A stretch of DNA of 64,000 bases from a virus (taxonomy: Duplodnaviria; Caudoviricetes), in IMG/VR virus record IMGVR_UViG_3300013936_000023, positions 1-64,000 of that record; one strand, 5' to 3'. Below are positions 3,424 through 53,937 of this stretch, in pieces. Position numbers and translations under genes: made by a program. How positions within the stretch are numbered: the first letter of the stretch is position 1; every line of letters begins with the position of its first letter. Under the pieces are notes generated by a model. It was not told where the DNA came from. It searched no databases and saw only the letters and a list, made by a program, of their open reading frames with translations.

Positions 3424-6400
3424 TTAAGTTGTCGCATAACTTCTTTGCATCGCCATCTGCTTGAGGCCGTCAACAAACTGCTGGGCATTGCGCACGCTCG
3501 GCAGAGAAACATTGGCCACATTGAGGATGGTATTGCCAGCGCCAGATTTGCTTGCAAACCAACGCGGGTCAGAGCCAATCTTCATCAGGTTGCGCGTAAT
3601 GTCAGCAGGGATGATCCCGTCGCCTTGATTCAATACGCGCAACTCGGGGCCTTGTTCGCCAACCATGGCCAAGCCGCCACGAGCAGATAGCGTACCGCTG
3701 GCATAACCCATATCCGACAATTTCTTCCGCAGTTCCTCATTGCGCTCATGGAGACGCTTACGCTCTTCCTCATCGGCGTCGAACCATGCTTGAGAATTTC
3801 GCGCAATCTCATCCTCCATTCCCATGATTTTGGACTGGTCAGAATGACTAACGCTGCCGCTACTACTCGACGTGTTGTTGCGTCGAGACGAACTGGAAGA
3901 ACTGGAACTTGTCGAACCGGAATATCCAGATGTGTAGCCGTACTTGTTCTTCAGGCGATTCCACATATCTGCTGTGGATTCTCCCTGAATGCCAAGTGCT
4001 TGCATCTTAGCATTGCGCTGACCAATGACGCCCTTAATCCAGTCGTAGCCATAGCCTTTCTTGATTCCCTCTTCAAGAAGTTCACCATAGTCCGTATCTT
4101 TGTCCCAAAGCGGATTGTAAGCGTTGACAATGTCAGCCCAAGCCTCAGCGTCACTTGCATAGCCTTCGCCACTACCAGCCCATTCACCGGGTTGAACGCC
4201 AGAACCAGAACCATAGCCACCAGAACCACCGCCAAGACCAGCCAAGATGCTATTGTACTGGCTCGCAAAACTTTGGAGATTCGCCAAACGCGTCTGCCAG
4301 TTTGCGTTCTCTTGTTCAATGCCAAACATTTGGTCGGCGAGGAGCTTGTTCTGCTGATACTCATACTCGCTGGTCAGATTGCTCCAACCCTCTTTGTATT
4401 CCTCCCAGCGTGCCTTCTCCTCTTCAAGCGCCGCCGTTTCGTTCTTGCGCAGAGTCTCGATATATTCCTTCTCGGCCTTGAGCGAATCCTCAATGTACTT
4501 CTTGCGGTTCTCGTAATCCTTTTGGCGATAGTACGCATTCAGCTCATTTTGGGATTTACTTACAGCATCAGCATCGGCTTGATATACAAACTGGCCATCT
4601 TTGAATACCATCTGCATGGTATTCTTAGCCTTGTCCAGCGCATTGAGCTTTTCCTGTAAGGTAATCTGGTCTTCAACGGCGTCATTCTGAGCTTCCAGAG
4701 CATCAAGTTGCGCCTGAGCGCGGTCTTCCGCATCCTGAAGCATTTGGTCATACTTGTCGTTGATGGCGTCAATTTGGTCTTGCAGTTCCTCGATTTTACG
4801 AGAGGCATATTCGACGTAATAGTCAATGACGCCTTGCATCATCTGCTTCTGCTCGTTTAGAGCATCAGAGACGGAATCAGATACATTGTCAACCGAATCT
4901 TTGGCGGTTTTCTCAACCTCTTTGACAGCGTCCTTGGCTTCTTCCTTATTTTTCTGAGTTTGCTTAGAAGAGCTTGGCGATGTATATGTCGGGACACTTG
5001 TCCCGCCAGTTGGTGTGGTGGTAGAAGCAGACGGCTGATAGAACGACGTCAAGCTACCCCACAAGTTCTTCATATATGCCTGACTTGCTTGACGCATAGC
5101 CTCTTGACTGGTTAATTTCTTGCCAGCGTAATGTGCCTGTTGCATCAAGCCAGTAGCAGATGCTCGAATTTGATTCTGGGCGCTGGTGTCACTCATACCC
5201 ATGACAGCGGCGATAGCAGACGCGCTATATCCTGCCTGAGTCGCCAACTGCTGTAATGCGGCAATCTGCTGGCTGAAATTGAGTTGCTGATTATTGGTTG
5301 CAATCATTTGGGCCGCGAGATTATACATCTCGTTCTTGGCCGTGGTGGTTGTACTTGCTTGTTCAAGAAGTTTGTTGACGTAATTGCTGATATACGTCTG
5401 CGCCTCATTGTACGCAACTTGTGTGCTCTGGAACGTGTTGTACAGCAATTGTTGTTCATTGGTGCAACTTGCGACGCCGCCCTCGACATTCTCCATAGCA
5501 GACGTTAACCGCCCAGCCTCAGCCGTCAACTTATTGTACTCAACAACTTGCTCGCTGGTCAAGGATTTGTTTTGGCTTAGAATAGTCTGATATTTCTGGA
5601 GCTTTAACGTCAGTTGCTCATAATACTTTGCGCCCTCGATAAGCTCAGTAACAGGAACGGTCGTTTCCTTCCCGCCAATACGCTTAGTCGTATAGGTCGT
5701 TTCAGTAGTATAAGCGTTGTCAAGAATAGCTTGAGCCTTTTCGGTCTTGAGCTGCTGGTACTTGTCAATCTGATTCTGAAGCTCGGCGTTTTCCTTTTCA
5801 AGAGCGTCCTTCTCGGCAAGAATCTCCGGCGTCTTGTCATTCCAAGCTATACCGTTGATTTCTTCGAGACGAGCCCTATTCGTTTCAAGTTGCTGAGTAT
5901 CAGATTCAATAGACTCATTGAGTTCGTCAATGTTCTTACGACTGTCTTCGGTTGCCTTCCAGAAATAGCCACCAACAGCAAGAGCCGCAGCTACAGCAAG
6001 AATAACTGGAAGGATACCAGTAAGGACACCACCACCGGCGCTCAACGCCGCAAATAATCCAGACGCACCTTCTTTAGCAAGACTTGCCGCTGCTGCAAAA
6101 TTCTTGAATTGGCTAATAACGGAAGGGATAATCTTGGACGCCTGAAGCAATCCGGTTGCGCCCCAGCCAACACCAGTCAGTAACGTAATCTGCGTGACAA
6201 TGCGACCAAGGTCGGTATTGGCAAGCTGTAAGAATCCATTGGCTAAGTCCAACACAGCTCCAACCAATTTGTCGTCAATGACGTTATTGGCAAGGTCTTG
6301 GAATGTTGCCTTAAGGTTATTCGTCTTAGCCTCAAGCGATTCCATGTATGCCGCATTTTCGTTGATAGCTGAGCCATTGGCATCAAGCGCAAGAGTCAAG

Positions 6401-34741: not shown

Positions 34742-35050
34742 ATGTTTTATTATTGCGAGTATGCCAACGGTACGCGCTATGTTCGCGCCCATGACGAAAA
34801 GAAGCACGGAGCACCGCGCGTCGTGTCGCCCGACCTTACATTTCTTTTCCATGGTGCTGTCAGTACGTGCCGCGTCTATAGCACGGAAATGGAAGCACTC
34901 GAGGCATGGGGCAAGTATAGCAATAAGCCTGTCATTATGCCCGACGGTAACACGGTCACGCCTGCGCGTTATTTTGGTGTAAAGCGCATCGAAGATATAT
35001 TTATTCCATGGTCCGACGTAAAGGGCGAACGTTGGCCAGGTGAATATTAA
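34742..35050 (+). CDS. Small early protein
   Basis: 102 aa with RBS GAGGAGG. Confidence 0.7.
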   Translation: MFYYCEYANGTRYVRAHDEKKHGAPRVVSPDLTFLFHGAVSTCRVYSTEMEALEAWGKYSNKPVIMPDGNTVTPARYFGVKRIEDIFIPWSDVKGERWPGEY

Positions 35051-35061
35051 ATAACCCTATG

Positions 35062-35098
35062 AAGCCCGTAGAATGACCGCTGCGGGCTTTTTCTTTTT
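35062..35098 (+). terminator. Terminator of early cluster
   Basis: AAGCCCGTAG/CTGCGGGCTT stem followed by TTTCTTTTT. Confidence 0.75.
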
Positions 35099-35994
35099 GC
35101 CCGTGTACTTTATACCCCTTGCGCCTTGCGTGTGCGTGTGCGGCCTCTCAGAGCCATTTACAGCGGTTCACGCTATGCCTTGCCAGTTGCTATGTATGCA
35201 GCGGGCTTTTCATTGTGCTCTGCGCTTTACTATGGTAGCATGACAACATACACAAGCGGAGTGAATATCCAAACCGACATTCACTTTACCACAGTAACAC
35301 AGCGGCATGACAACGTGATAAAACCTACCTGTTAGATGGGTTGATTCTGCCAGCGATATAGTCTTGTGCGCACGTCAATTACGGATTGCGTCATTTTCGC
35401 CAGATATACCTATTGCGTTAGTGTGTTTATGCAGCAGCTCGGTCTGTCCAGCTCTCCTTGCGTTACTCGTGCAAACGGATTTGCCGCAGCGTCTCTCACG
35501 TTACCTCTCATGCGCGTTTCGCCCGCGATATGGATATAGTATATGCTGGCGGCTAACATGGCTCAGAGCGGCCTTTAATTGTCTTGGCGGCATGGTTTAT
35601 GTCCACACAAGGCTTGGCCTCAATAAAATTCATACTTGACAAGTTCGTTTGGTTGTGCTATGCTCGCATTAAGTAAATAGAAGAGACAGGTATCTATTGA
35701 CTCATCGTTTAATAGATTAATAGATGTACACGCAGCTCAATGCCAAATGCGTGTAGAATCTAAATAAACAATCAGCAAATCAAAGCCGATTTGCAACGCC
35801 ATGGCTCAATTGGTATATGGATGCACCCAAAGCAATTCTTTACTAAATTGATTCGATTTTACCATTGTTTATGTTGTGTTTTGCTTTCTAATAATATTGC
35901 GATTGACATTACGATTGCATGGATGCAATGAATCAAAAAATGAAAATTGACGTGTGAGCTGTGAAACGAGATTTGATTTTTCTCTTTTGGAAAA

Positions 35995-36735
35995 TTGAAA
36001 TTAAAACGGCGATTCAAAAATTTGAATTTAAGAAATGGGGAATGGAATTTGAATGTAAAGATTCTAATGCCGGAGGTAAATCCAAAATCGTTTATTGACG
36101 ATTACCTCTACAAAATGGGAATTGAATATCCGCAATCCTATATGAATGTATGGCGAAGTCATCTGGAAGAACCGAATCGATATTTGAATATTGATGAGGC
36201 AACCAGTCGGCTAAACCAAGCAATCAGGAATGCCGAATGCGTGGGCGTTATCCAAGATTGTGATGTTGATGGGCTATGCTCAGCGGTCATTGCCTATCAA
36301 TTTCTAAAATCGAATGGCGTAGAGCCAATTGTATTTTTCCATTCAGGCAAGCAGCATGGTATCAACGACCTGATGCCGCAAATCAAAGATGCAAATTTGG
36401 ATTTGCTTATTGTTCCGGACGCAAGCGGGAAAGCTGAAGAATGTAAGACGCTGAAAGATAATGGTTGTGATGTAATCATAGCGGACCACCACGAATACGA
36501 TTTCGATTCAAATCCATTTGCAATTATTGTGAATTGTAAGCAACAAGAAACGACAAATCAAAAAGCCAGCGGCGCATTAGTGATGCAAAAAATCGTGGAC
36601 AGATTTTACGAAAGATATGACGGCAAGAAAGAAAATGACTGTGGAGATTTGGTTGGGTTGTCAATCCTCAGTGATTCTATGAGTGTTCTTGAAATTGAAA
36701 ATCGAGCATATCTAAACATAATGATGAGAGGCTGA
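35995..36735 (+). CDS. RecJ-like DHH exonuclease, N-terminal piece
   Basis: DCDVDG, LLIVPD, ADHHE and SDSM..ENR motifs; true start may be TTG near 36046. Confidence 0.8.
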   Translation: MKLKRRFKNLNLRNGEWNLNVKILMPEVNPKSFIDDYLYKMGIEYPQSYMNVWRSHLEEPNRYLNIDEATSRLNQAIRNAECVGVIQDCDVDGLCSAVIAYQFLKSNGVEPIVFFHSGKQHGINDLMPQIKDANLDLLIVPDASGKAEECKTLKDNGCDVIIADHHEYDFDSNPFAIIVNCKQQETTNQKASGALVMQKIVDRFYERYDGKKENDCGDLVGLSILSDSMSVLEIENRAYLNIMMRG

Positions 36736-36740
36736 TTCTA

Positions 36741-37256
36741 ATGGCACACTTTAATAAACGATATAATCGCTATGATTTAAGCGGAGATTATGGCGTTGGT
36801 TACACCAGTAAAGGTGAAGAGTTTTATTTTGATTTAGAAGACTACGATAAAATTAAAGATTATTGTTGGGTAATTTCAAAAACCACGGATACCGTTTGTG
36901 CCAGAATGTGCGGAACGAATAAGTTAATCGTAATGCACCGTCTCGTTATGGACGTTGTAAATGCTGGTCGCAATGTTCAGGTTGACCACATTCATCACAA
37001 TCGCCACGACAACAGAAAATCGGAATTGAGAATCTGTAATAATTCTCAAAATTCTATGAATAAAGGTTTACAATCAAACAATACGTCGGGAGTTGCTGGC
37101 GTAAGCTGGGATGAGAAAGATAAACTTTGGCACGCATATATCCAGAAAAATCACGAAAGAACATCGAGATGGTTTAAGAATTATGACGATGCCGTTGCAT
37201 GGAGATTGGAAATGCAAAAGAAAATTTTTGGAGAATATGAATATGTTGAGCATTGA
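36741..37256 (+). CDS. HNH endonuclease with AP2 domain
   Basis: VDHIHHNRHDNRKSELR; NNTSGVAGVSWD...WHAYI. Confidence 0.85.
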   Translation: MAHFNKRYNRYDLSGDYGVGYTSKGEEFYFDLEDYDKIKDYCWVISKTTDTVCARMCGTNKLIVMHRLVMDVVNAGRNVQVDHIHHNRHDNRKSELRICNNSQNSMNKGLQSNNTSGVAGVSWDEKDKLWHAYIQKNHERTSRWFKNYDDAVAWRLEMQKKIFGEYEYVEH

Positions 37257-37301
37257 GAATCGAGCATATTTGAATTTGGGATTTGGAGGAGGTTGGCCAA
37301 A

Positions 37302-38249
37302 ATGACGAATGGGTTTTTGAACCTCTGCGTTGAAAAGAAACTCGGCAAGAAGCCGCTCGTTCCCCACAACCTAAGCTTCAGCCTCATTCCCTATCTCAAC
37401 GCCGTCTGCCGCTCTAATAATCAAGATGCAAAACGGGCGCTGTTTATGGCGTTTGCTAAAGGCGAGAATGAAGCTGAAGCCCTCAAGCAGATGAATGCGG
37501 CATATCGTGTCCAGCGCGAGACGATGACGCGCATGGTTGAGGAGTTGAGCCGACAAGCAGATGGTCAAGTTGAGCGCGGCGACAAGATTTTGTTCGTGCG
37601 CATGGCGAATGATGACAAAGAATATGGTGGGCTTGCGGCAAACAAATTAAAATCCAAATATGGGCTTCCCGTGGTTTGTCTGCGGGAGGCCGACCCAAAC
37701 AACTGGTCTGGCTCTGTGCGTTCGGATTGCGACACACTGGATGCCATGAACGTAACGGGGCTGGCCAAATGCCAAGGTCATAAGAGCGCACATGGCATCA
37801 TGGTACGCAAAGCCGTGTTTGATGAATTTCGCGCATGGGCAAATGAGCAAGATTGGAATCCGCAAGAGCTGACGGCAACTGCCGAGCTGACCGTAGATGA
37901 TATTACACTTGAGCTTTGCGAGCTGCTGGATAGCTCGGCATGGCTTTGGGCTAACGATTTGCCAGCGCCGACATTCTATTGCAAATTTGAAATTCCGCGT
38001 GGCGCAAGCGTGCTATGTGGAGCTGCTGGCAACTGCTTCAGATATACGCCGTTCATCAAATTTGGATGCAATGAGCGCGAGGTTGAGCGGCTGACGGCAG
38101 ACCATGCTCGTACTATCGAGGCGATTGTTGAGCTGACGGTCAACGAGTACATGGGCGTTCGTTATCCTCAAGCGCGTATTGTAGATTGGGAAATTCATGT
38201 TGAACAGCCGCAGGAAGAAAATTTTGATTTTGGTGCAATTTTTTCTTGA
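37302..38249 (+). CDS. RecJ-like exonuclease, C-terminal piece (DHHA1)
   Basis: LSFSLIPYLNAVCR, GGLAANKL...PVV, GSVRS and GHKSAHG motifs. SD GGAGGAGG 9 nt before ATG 37302. Confidence 0.8.
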   Translation: MTNGFLNLCVEKKLGKKPLVPHNLSFSLIPYLNAVCRSNNQDAKRALFMAFAKGENEAEALKQMNAAYRVQRETMTRMVEELSRQADGQVERGDKILFVRMANDDKEYGGLAANKLKSKYGLPVVCLREADPNNWSGSVRSDCDTLDAMNVTGLAKCQGHKSAHGIMVRKAVFDEFRAWANEQDWNPQELTATAELTVDDITLELCELLDSSAWLWANDLPAPTFYCKFEIPRGASVLCGAAGNCFRYTPFIKFGCNEREVERLTADHARTIEAIVELTVNEYMGVRYPQARIVDWEIHVEQPQEENFDFGAIFS

Positions 38250-38274
38250 CAAGCGCGATGGTGTGTGTTATATT
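38246..38274 (+). promoter_or_regulatory. SigmaA promoter
   Basis: TTGACA-17-TATATT. Confidence 0.65.
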
Positions 38275-38306
38275 TTAATCATCAACTAAAGCAAAGGAGA
38301 TTTAAG

Positions 38307-39209
38307 ATGGACATTAAGGAAATTCTTAAAAAGCATAAGATGTGGCTTAACAACGAGATTGGTGGAAAGCGAGCAAACCTGCGTGATGCAGACCTGTGGG
38401 GTGCAGACTTGTGTGGCGTAAACCTGCGTGATGCAGACCTGCGTGGTGCAAACCTGCGTGGTGCAGACCTGAGTGGTGCAAACCTGTGGGATGCAGACCT
38501 GAGTGGTGCAGACCTGTGTTGTGCAGACCTGCGTGGTGCAAACCTGCGTGGTGCAAACCTGCGTGGTGCAAACCTGTGGGATGCAAGCCTGCGTGATGCA
38601 GACCTGCGTGGTGCAAGCCTGCGTGATGCAGACCTGCGTGGTGCAAGCCTGCGTGATGCAGACCTGTGTGGTGCAGACCTGCGTGGCGTAAACCTGCGTG
38701 ATGCAGACCTGTGGGGTGCAGACTTGTGTTGTGCAGACCTGTGGGGTGCAGACCTGTGTTGTGCAGACCTGCGTGGTGCAGACCTGCGTGATGCAGACCT
38801 GCGTGGTGCAAGCCTGCGTGGTGCAAACCTGCGTGGTGCAAAAAACCTCGATAACGTTACATGGTCGATTTATACGGCATTTTATCCGCTTCAGTGTCCA
38901 GAAGAAGGAGAGTATATCGCATGGAAAAAGGCTCATGGCAAGATTGTCAAACTTAAAATTACGGAATCAGCAAAGCGTTCTTCTGCAGTATCTCGAAAAT
39001 GTAGGGCAAGCGAAGCATTGGTTCTTGACATCCAATCTATTGACGGAATGGAACATCTTGAATCGGTTGCAAGTGATAGAGATTCTAATTTCATCTATCG
39101 TGTTGGCGAAATTGTTCGAGTAAATGATTTCGACGAAGATAGATGGAATGAGTGCTCGACTGGAATTCATCATTTTATCACTCGTGAAGAAGCTGTGAAA
39201 TACAACTAA
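38307..39209 (+). CDS. Pentapeptide-repeat protein with conserved C-terminal domain (DUF5758-like)
   Basis: 31 A(D/N/S)L(R/W/C/S)(G/D/C) units; C-terminus CPEEG...KCRASEA...ECSTGIHHF. Confidence 0.85.
   Translation: MDIKEILKKHKMWLNNEIGGKRANLRDADLWGADLCGVNLRDADLRGANLRGADLSGANLWDADLSGADLCCADLRGANLRGANLRGANLWDASLRDADLRGASLRDADLRGASLRDADLCGADLRGVNLRDADLWGADLCCADLWGADLCCADLRGADLRDADLRGASLRGANLRGAKNLDNVTWSIYTAFYPLQCPEEGEYIAWKKAHGKIVKLKITESAKRSSAVSRKCRASEALVLDIQSIDGMEHLESVASDRDSNFIYRVGEIVRVNDFDEDRWNECSTGIHHFITREEAVKYN
38373..38837 (+). repeat. 15-bp tandem coding repeat x31
   Basis: Consensus GCA-RAC-CTG-YGT-GRT. Confidence 0.9.
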
Positions 39210-39221
39210 GGAGAATCCATA

Positions 39222-39416
39222 ATGAACAAGAACCCCTGTTTCAAATGCGCAGACCGTTGTGTGGGTTGCCATGGCTCATGCGAGCGATATAGCGAATGGC
39301 GTAAAGCATATGAATCCAATGCCAACATCGTTCGCGAATCCAAGGCAAGAGCTACAGATTATCTTGCGGCTCGCCGTCAGCTTCAATTTACCAATACGGC
39401 AAAGTGGGGTGTGTGA
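39222..39416 (+). CDS. Small Cys-rich protein
   Basis: CFKCADRCVGCHGSC; RBS AAGGAG. Confidence 0.7.
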   Translation: MNKNPCFKCADRCVGCHGSCERYSEWRKAYESNANIVRESKARATDYLAARRQLQFTNTAKWGV

Positions 39417-53280: not shown

Positions 53281-53937
53281 ATGAGTGCTCTGAAAGATTT
53301 AACTGAGAAACGCTTTGGAAAGTTGATCGTATTACGTAGGAGTGGCAATGATAAACATAAGAATGCGACGTGGTTGTGTCAGTGCGATTGTGGAAACAGA
53401 TGTAATGTCGTAGGTGCAAATCTTTGGCGAGGCGATACAAAGTCTTGCGGATGTTATAAGAAAACCAATAAATACGAAGAAGATGGGGCCGTAACAAGAA
53501 TCCATCTCACGAATGGCTCTGTTGTGTTAGTTGACACCGAAGATGTTCCTAAGATATCAATGTACCAATGGAGTATCGCACGTGGATATGCCGTAGCAAC
53601 GATTAACAATAAAACAACATCTATGCATCGACCAATAATGGACGCCAAAGACGGATTTGTTGTTGACCATATCAATCATAACGAGCTTGATAACAGGAAG
53701 AGTAACTTGCGCGTGTGCACTCAAAGCAATAACGCCATGAATCGTAAAAAGGCAAGCAATAACACGTCTGGATATATAGGTGTCGTGTTTAAGAAAGATT
53801 GTGGTAAATGGGAGGCATTTATTCGAGTTGACAAGAAGCGAAAATATTTAGGGTTATTTGAAACGCCAGAGCTTGCTCACGAAGCTCGCAAAGAAGCCGA
53901 AGAAAAATATTTTGGTGAGTTCGCCTATCAAGGCTAA
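53281..53937 (+). CDS. HNH-AP2 homing endonuclease
   Basis: DLTEKRFGKL...WLCQCDCG; VDHINHNELDNRKSNLR; NNTSGYIGV; YLGLF. Confidence 0.85.
   Translation: MSALKDLTEKRFGKLIVLRRSGNDKHKNATWLCQCDCGNRCNVVGANLWRGDTKSCGCYKKTNKYEEDGAVTRIHLTNGSVVLVDTEDVPKISMYQWSIARGYAVATINNKTTSMHRPIMDAKDGFVVDHINHNELDNRKSNLRVCTQSNNAMNRKKASNNTSGYIGVVFKKDCGKWEAFIRVDKKRKYLGLFETPELAHEARKEAEEKYFGEFAYQG

Follow-up and report, generated by a model that had tools for sequence, protein, structure and literature searches.

The virus record IMGVR_UViG_3300013936_000023 (Duplodnaviria; Caudoviricetes) carries a RecJ-like exonuclease gene in two pieces, with a gene for an HNH endonuclease between them; the window analysed here comprises bases 1-64000 of this 74,756-base record, which CheckV rates as complete. 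Comparison with related phage loci makes it very probable that the phage belongs to a clade with a two-gene RecJ-like exonuclease, and that the HNH gene was acquired later, from an HNH-carrying donor, within the 3' end of the gene for the amino-terminal half (N gene), the native end of which was thereby orphaned. On the evidence of the relatives, the split is older than the HNH gene now present and is fixed across the clade.

The interval 35995-38249 is filled by three successive + strand open reading frames (ORFs), namely the N piece, the HNH gene and the piece encoding the carboxy-terminal half (C gene), and the window holds only one DHH-family match. A preliminary description of the locus had noted two synonymous copies of IENRAYLN flanking the HNH gene, and their positions and sequences are as it gave them. 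The degenerate pattern ATTGARAATCGAGCATATYTRAAY matches 36694-36717 and 37252-37275 alone, and none of 100 shuffles gave a match, so that the pair is not attributable to chance; the copies differ at four of 24 bases, every difference being synonymous. Comparison with relatives extends the duplication to 33 nucleotides (nt), or 11 codons ([V/M]L[E/S]IENRAYLN, 36685-36717 and 37243-37275). Copy 1 shares the frame of the N ORF (35995-36735), and copy 2 that of a small ORF (37111-37305), itself -1 relative to the C ORF (37293/37302-38249). The ends of the two copies are 558 nt apart and nearly all of the interval is HNH ORF, the spacing being 5 nt ahead of the HNH ORF and 45 nt behind it; the HNH stop (TGA, 37254-37256) and the last 3-4 HNH codons lie inside copy 2. 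As also described earlier, deleting the 11 nt TTTGGAGGAGG brings copy 2 and the C ORF into one frame, which then reads ...YLNLG-LAKMTNGFL, and in alignment with intact homologues the junction without TTTGGAGGAGG equals the intact proteins in length (ENR-DFFLFG-TNKI-NNPFL in Enterocloster phage CB473P1; ENR-AYLYSG-LNNV-TNPFL in L083, one of the related loci, which carry L numbers here). The proposal that these 11 nt provide the ribosome-binding site of the C gene stands: GGAGGAGG (37285-37292), which precedes the C-gene ATG (37302) by 9 nt, is its predicted ribosome-binding site. They are not newly acquired, however, since HNH-free relatives have TTTGGAGG at the same place, from which the window differs by a single extra triplet.

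That the N and C ORFs represent one RecJ-like gene in pieces holds at the protein level, for homologues are uninterrupted where the two ORFs are divided. Intact phage RecJ-like genes are single ORFs of 555-602 amino acids (aa; Enterocloster phage CB473P1, Brevibacillus phage Sundance, Alicyclobacillus phage KKP_3916), and alignment with them shows that the break directly follows a conserved ENR motif. The N piece covers positions 15-228 of the RecJ-like exonuclease family phrog_2484 (PHROGs) and the C piece positions 239-559, and together they thus span one protein. The N frame is open from 35995; translation likely starts at TTG 36049, to which homology with relatives that begin MNVKILMP points, or else at ATG 36067. 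It matches Pfam DHH at 4e-12, above the cut-off, and its profile matches the RecJ structures 8y30 (S. aureus, residues 59-246) and 5f54 (D. radiodurans, hereafter DrRecJ, residues 58-242), with DCDVDG, PDA, DHH and LSD (motifs I DxDxDG, II D, III DHH and IV D) invariant in the N alignment, A3. Its AlphaFold model (predicted local distance difference test, pLDDT, 88.5) is a five-stranded alpha/beta fold whose last helix is made of ENRAYLN... The C gene contains the last four DHH helices (motif V region, LNAVCR), a long linker helix, a DHHA1 domain (GS.RS, GH) and an OB fold. Its Pfam matches to DHHA1 (3e-4) and RecJ_OB (4e-5) are both below the cut-off, the latter only just; the profile of the C alignment, A2, matches 8y30 residues 256-559 (E=7e-20) and 5f54 residues 256-519, and G140/S141/R143 and G162/H163 are invariant in that alignment. 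The C model (pLDDT 85.5) consists of four short helices (7-56), a long 36-residue helix (60-95), an alpha/beta part and a beta-barrel, whose strands at 196-303 form the OB fold of the RecJ-like family; a DHHA1 domain with GS.RS and GH following the long linker helix is likewise present, and the best Foldseek matches of the model are RecJ structures (4e-18). The domain and motif order is that of bacterial RecJ (D. radiodurans 5F54, T. thermophilus 2ZXO, S. aureus 8Y30) and of phage phrog_2484 (SPbeta YorK). Unlike bacterial RecJ, the window protein consists of two polypeptides, broken at about DrRecJ residues 243-255 inside the DHH domain, and does without the extra N- and C-terminal regions.

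The position of the break bears directly on how such an enzyme could work. In DrRecJ, the DHH domain comprises residues 49-295, the linker helix 296-327 and DHHA1 328-424; D223 is the motif IV Asp, F269 belongs to motif V, and the 5'-phosphate ligands are R109, R280, S371 and R373 (PMC4846377). Set against these motifs, the profile spans of the two halves place the break within the DHH domain, after motif IV and before motif V, in agreement with the AlphaFold models of N and C. By this alignment, the N chain is predicted to hold the metal ligands, and the C chain the counterparts of R280, S371 and R373 together with the GH motif. A break at this point implies an active site to which both polypeptides must contribute. 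We infer that the two chains assemble into one enzyme, for which the persistence of the split and the ratio of nonsynonymous to synonymous substitution rates (dN/dS) give indirect support, and the predicted role of the pair is that of a 5'-3' single-stranded DNA exonuclease.

These data also speak to the suspicion that the RecJ-like gene is dead, its two ORFs being decaying fragments left by mobile-element disruption. Phages can probably do without their recJ-like genes in the laboratory, and the Pfam scores of the C half lie under the curated cut-offs, both of which would fit decay. Against this, both frames are open and constant in length across a clade that has diverged to 38% identity, the catalytic and phosphate-binding motifs are invariant, and both pieces yield confident RecJ-like models. 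Furthermore, dN/dS is 0.08-0.22 for both halves, including the window versus HNH-free relatives, in a set from which some distant-relative pairs with saturation or frame problems were left out. Both halves thus look functional and under purifying selection, and we consider a dead gene very improbable.

The split is a property of the clade and not of the window alone. Stand-alone C homologues (n=22, 266-319 aa) are 38-93% identical, every full-length one beginning at the same M-x-N-x-F-L, and there are about 90 stand-alone N homologues, most full-length ones of 222-249 aa. All 17 fetched loci are split at the same residue, most of them without an HNH gene, and across N and C clusters and fetched loci the identity of split forms spans 100% to 38%. 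The end shared by most N homologues, and by nearly every HNH-free N protein in the nearer groups, is ...SMLSIENRAYLNLGFGGxxx and a stop (SIENRAYLNLGFGG...), with ...ENRAYLNLGMExxx and a stop in deeper groups. In HNH-free N genes the stop often overlaps the C-gene ATG. The simplest arrangement is found in L163 and L165, where nothing is inserted and N stop and C start overlap as ATGA. In other HNH-free loci (L077, L164, L166-L172, L178) the halves are separated by one or more small ORFs; the intervening genes amount to 0.2-1.3 kb in many relatives, and L177 is likewise split and HNH-free. The closest relative, L162, has an N gene with an IMMRG tail, then 28 HNH codons and four unrelated small ORFs. 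Intact forms occur among more distant relatives, and the scan of genome contigs returned only distant intact forms. A search for longer, unsplit homologous proteins gave nothing above 40% identity, so that the database holds no recent unsplit ancestor. A single-protein scan of viral contigs with the C half gave no match; alignment-based scans did find C halves. In an IQ-TREE analysis of 29 sequences, all 17 split forms group in one clade (SH-like approximate likelihood ratio test, SH-aLRT, 94) with the intact forms outside, and a single origin of the split is favoured by this tree, though not proven.

Within this ancestrally divided gene, the window carries a block of foreign sequence. Compared with L162, it is ~98-100% identical from ~36457 to 36826, which takes in the first 86 nt of the HNH gene, and 64-85% identical upstream of ~36440. 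Compared with five HNH-free relatives, sliding identity is 72-90% in most windows up to ~36400, apart from a dip to 56-69% near 36200-36270, where these relatives also fall to 73% among themselves. From ~36400 to 36717 the window is 48-70% identical to the HNH-free relatives, whereas these are 81-85% identical to one another. In the N protein, identity to the nearest HNH-free group drops from 75-86% over residues 1-124 to only 56-65% over residues 124-217. In blastn comparisons with each of the five, homology ends at 36543-36618 and resumes at 37242/37243. Taken together, these identity profiles mark the last ~100 N codons, the IMMRG tail and the HNH gene as one foreign block of about 800 nt, ~100% identical to L162 but only 50-68% identical to HNH-free alleles. 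Homing or recombination in which the left flank is co-converted would be expected to leave such a block.

On the other side of the HNH gene lies what the block displaced. The segment 37243-37305 reads ATG TTG AGC ATT GAG AAT CGA GCA TAT TTG AAT TTG GGA TTT GGA GGA GGT TGG CCA AAA TGA, its stop overlaps the C-gene ATG, and over 47-48 nt it matches the N-gene ends of the HNH-free loci L164, L166 and L077 at 89-96% identity. This codon-by-codon match identifies copy 2 as the displaced native N tail, detached from the N gene. Copy 1 is, on these comparisons, the donor allele and copy 2 the recipient allele of the same N-gene segment, and the earlier view of the copy as a recoding of local sequence falls away, as copy 1 belongs to the foreign N 3'-end allele that arrived with the HNH gene. 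Two ATGs, at 37237 and 37243, are in frame with the relic; ahead of them lies GGAG (37230-37233), which derives from the conserved FGE(Y/F) end of HNH, and a relic peptide of 20-22 codons might be translated, terminating on the C start. The donor end of the N gene is rare: the ending VLEIENRAYLNIMMRG and stop is found only in the window protein and two clusters at 87-88% identity, the IMMRG tail is common only to the window, L162, P0032 and P0033, and a similar tail, NIAMR..., occurs in the group P0102-P0112. AGAGG inside the IMMRG codons, 8 nt before the HNH ATG, is the likely ribosome-binding site for translational coupling to the HNH gene.

The HNH gene itself behaves like a mobile element, to judge from its distribution: it is intact in the window, decayed in L162 and missing in HNH-free relatives. 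It matches phrog_99 (HNH endonuclease) at 3.6e-30 (PHROGs), and its Pfam matches, HNH_3 (0.009) and AP2 (0.0087), are weak and below the gathering scores, the name HNH-AP2 being based on PHROG profiles and domain order. Viral contigs contain 73 homologues, which align as far as residue ~168 of 171 and thereby place the right joint at the very end of the HNH gene. An HNH of 64-68% identity occupies this RecJ junction in L082, L175 and L176, a lineage with only ~40% RecJ identity, and is absent from L177, a close relative of the three that is nearly identical to L082 and L175; HNH is also absent from L163-L166, and in L162 it is cut down to its first 28 codons. The gene is thus sporadic among close relatives at a fixed site and flanked by a co-conversion tract, as a homing gene would be.

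These results bear on the explanation offered in the preliminary description, in which HNH inserted into an intact recJ in this genome, duplicating and recoding eight codons, with 11 new nt becoming a Shine-Dalgarno (SD) sequence that restarts the C half. The HNH gene does sit between the pieces, removal of the 11 nt does restore the junction length of intact homologues, and the related HNH at the same place in L082 suggests that an older HNH insertion may have caused an ancestral fission. For the window genome, however, L163 and L165 contradict it. HNH-free relatives down to 38-50% identity share the split and the LGFGG... tail, which speaks against the HNH insertion as its cause; the tail and its SD TTTGGAGG are equally present in many of them, so that the SD was not made in the HNH event; copy 1 lies within a ~300-nt foreign tract with no local recoding; and the HNH gene inserted 20 codons short of the end of an N gene that already existed. 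We therefore give this explanation little credence.

Several observations weigh against the preferred account of an older split and a later HNH arrival. A larger FastTree tree put the split forms in three places; the tree rows are concatenated N+C sequences that include the junction tails, and the IQ-TREE set is a reduced one. No donor lineage was found among the matches, the best non-HNH matches to the foreign segment being 59-65% identical, and the right-hand junction is defined solely against HNH-free relatives.

The available data are best explained by the following course of events. The ancestral arrangement would have been an N gene (~225 aa, motifs I-IV) beside a C gene (~315 aa), with an N end ...ENRAYLNLGFGGxxx and stop whose GFGG codons (TTTGGAGG) would double as the C-gene SD. 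The ATGA overlap of N stop and C start in the simplest relatives implies coupled translation, and the active site and 5'-phosphate pocket would draw on both polypeptides. A free-standing HNH-AP2 gene would then have entered the N 3' end through recombination with an HNH-carrying donor. The left crossover would lie inside N at ~36400-36450, from where the last ~100 N codons would be donor sequence ending in IENRAYLN-IMMRG and a stop, the IMMRG codons presumably supplying the ribosome-binding site for HNH. The right junction would fall at 37243, at the HNH ORF end, and the recipient's last 20 N codons would persist as an untethered relic that retains the C-gene SD and the ATGA overlap. The diverged donor allele, together with a copy 2 severed from its upstream half, would shield the HNH-carrying genome from its own nuclease.

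In this scheme the two halves remain separate polypeptides. Rejoining by a group I intron, a split intein, ribosomal hopping or a -1 frameshift is very improbable. The A_AAA_TGA that follows GGAGG in L163 and L165 could in principle permit a -1 slip from N into C, and this is what such a mechanism has in its favour. In the window, however, HNH separates the N gene from the slip site, and across relatives the tails, stop contexts and intervening genes vary, which leaves no conserved mechanism of rejoining. Hopping would have to bridge too long a gap, and the non-homologous tails (N 5-10 aa, C 1-3 aa) fall far short of intein halves in length, for which reason a fractured gene with split intein halves (PMC2677866) was rejected. 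As the preliminary description had held, there is no sign of an intron: Rfam gave no match at E<=10 in 35000-39000 or 36600-37400, and a group I intron with a homing endonuclease ORF was discarded as no Intron_gpI match occurs in these intervals. The interval between the copies is nearly all HNH ORF, and the ATGA overlap in L163 and L165 leaves no room for an intron between the halves. No terminator-like site was found between the N, HNH and C genes.

A more tentative extension concerns the origin of the fission. It is conceivable, if somewhat doubtful, that an ancestral HNH-AP2 gene of the same lineage caused the recJ fission, yielding an obligate two-subunit nuclease with an active site spanning both chains and a junction that has become a permanent landing pad, which the HNH gene has invaded again and again and other cargo has filled, with the KINELVDAVNELRK protein described below as a possible third partner. 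If true, a homing endonuclease would here be seen for the first time to have driven a gene fission that is evolutionarily stable across a whole clade.

Among known systems, nrdA of Aeromonas phage Aeh1 comes nearest: there the insertion of the homing endonuclease gene (HEG) mobE made the split, and the insertion-created tails are essential for assembly and activity (Crona et al. 2010, PMC3045599). As in nrdA/mobE, a DNA-metabolism enzyme is here encoded as two polypeptides with a HEG between them, RNA or protein splicing is not involved, the break divides the catalytic unit, and short non-homologous tails flank the break (PMC3045599). Unlike in Aeh1, the RecJ split predates the present HNH, and is fixed in a clade that is mostly HEG-free; the HNH gene, moreover, lies inside the N-gene end and brought a substitute end with it. 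In a gene in pieces of the Aeh1 type, HEG-free relatives would be uninterrupted, and those without HNH here (L163, L165, L077, L164, L166-L172, L177) are not. The HNH gene resembles the free-standing phage HEGs, which need no intron for homing and co-convert flanking markers, such as the T4 seg and mob genes (PMC2988022) and HEGs at exchange boundaries (PMC10448857), in its sporadic presence among close relatives, its location next to or within a conserved DNA-metabolism gene, its decayed copy in a relative, and a flanking donor tract that ends at a sharp identity break. It differs from free-standing T4 HEGs in that the right junction is no clean homologous exchange, a 63-nt duplicate of the recipient gene end having been left behind, and from the T4 HEG families in its putative HNH_3 plus AP2 architecture. 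An HNH-AP2 architecture is known from the homing endonucleases of protists, cyanobacteria and phages, which are common in large phages and include a divergent branch termed 'IPA-HNH' (PMC10448857). With these the window gene shares a length of ~170 aa and a location near replication or repair genes (PMC10448857), and it would share an N-terminal HNH and a C-terminal AP2-like region; unlike in typical members, its Pfam matches are below threshold.

Worked examples of selfish endonuclease genes breaking up essential or useful genes are very few, chiefly Aeh1 nrdA. A literature search found no paper on a split RecJ, and the present case is a new, clade-wide example of the known genes-in-pieces type. 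A clade of uncultured ~65-100 kb phages retains this catalytic-domain split down to ~40% identity, and such clade-wide persistence indicates that fissions of this kind can be stable and not transient. Furthermore, the donor tract with its sharp left boundary, the recipient relic on the right, the decayed HEG in a sister genome and the HEG-free alleles form an unusually clean record of homing in metagenomic phages and jointly define a testable target site. There is also a practical consequence: annotation pipelines will label the halves 'DHH phosphoesterase' and 'hypothetical protein' or as pseudogenes, where one two-subunit RecJ-like enzyme should be entered. The features of the locus are collected in Table 1.

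Table 1. Features of the split RecJ-like locus in the window, and positions of the small junction gene in related loci
Feature	Position	Strand	Remarks
N gene of split RecJ-like exonuclease (DHH-domain core, motifs I-IV)	36049..36735	+	ends in ...IENRAYLNIMMRG and stop
Foreign block (donor 3' ~300 nt of N, donor tail, HNH)	36400..37242	+	left boundary approximate, 36400-36457
Copy 1, VLEIENRAYLN	36685..36717	+	translated within N protein, right after motif IV Asp of LSDS
Donor tail of N gene, IMMRG and stop	36718..36735	+	read from sequence
Free-standing HNH(-AP2) homing endonuclease gene, 171 aa	36741..37256	+	intact; phrog_99
Orphaned native N 3' end, MLSIENRAYLNLGFGGGWPK and stop	37243..37305	+	copy 2 (37243-37275), SD GGAGGAGG, stop TGA 37303-37305
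C gene of split RecJ-like exonuclease (motif V region, DHHA1, OB fold)	37302..38249	+	frame 37293/37302-38249
KINELVDAVNELRK gene, L162	5039-5470
KINELVDAVNELRK gene, L167	1387-1695
KINELVDAVNELRK gene, L168	1439-1768
KINELVDAVNELRK gene, L170	4187-4588
KINELVDAVNELRK gene, L171	4181-4549
KINELVDAVNELRK gene, L172	4282-4662
KINELVDAVNELRK gene, L178	545-916
KINELVDAVNELRK gene, L077	2810-2989		truncated

The junction is occupied by recurrent genes in the relatives as well. In most HNH-free relatives the RecJ halves enclose a small conserved gene (MKYEFHVGDYVET...KINELVDAVNELRK, 59-143 aa), whose stop in most of them overlaps the C-gene start; its product may be a partner of the split enzyme or simply cargo. 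A further recurrent cargo ORF, MKFILGGRGSGVTTD... (110-113 aa, phrog_1828), is present at L166:2955-3287 and L169:4178-4519, the latter being the same sequence as L078:2358-2699. Pfam and PHROG searches gave no function for the relatives' junction cargo ORFs, and the KINELVDAVNELRK gene is without a match in either.

Two observations concern the HNH family. The window holds a second HNH paralogue (53458-53928), which shares 37% aa identity with the RecJ-site HNH. In addition, the conserved C-terminal FGE(Y/F) of the family encodes GGAG 9-12 nt ahead of the next ATG (window 37230-37245; L082:5330-5352), so the HNH gene may carry a built-in ribosome-binding site for whichever gene lies downstream. 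Copy 1 also contains a promoter-like match (36695-36722, TTGAAA-16-CATAAT, 10/12, 19 nt before the HNH ATG), which is weak evidence, and the native copy 2 is not among the promoter-like sites found. As a promoter, this sigma-70-like match was rejected as unconvincing: it lies too near the HNH ribosome-binding site, into which the transcript start would cut.

Other interruptions occur as well. In the relative L085 (3983-5892), RecJ is in three pieces, with the usual N/C split and an ORF-less gap of ~250 nt (4195-4449) that breaks motif I (VLVD / TDNDG) and gave no Rfam match; a comparable gap is found in another RecJ-like gene at L044:3763-3990. Immediately downstream of the C gene, the window phage carries a gene for a pentapeptide-repeat protein (38265/38304-39209, within 38250-39220), an insertion private to this phage, as all six compared relatives join window position ~38300 straight to ~39208-39228. 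This gene has a near-consensus promoter, TTGACA-17-TATATT with TG, at 38246-38274.

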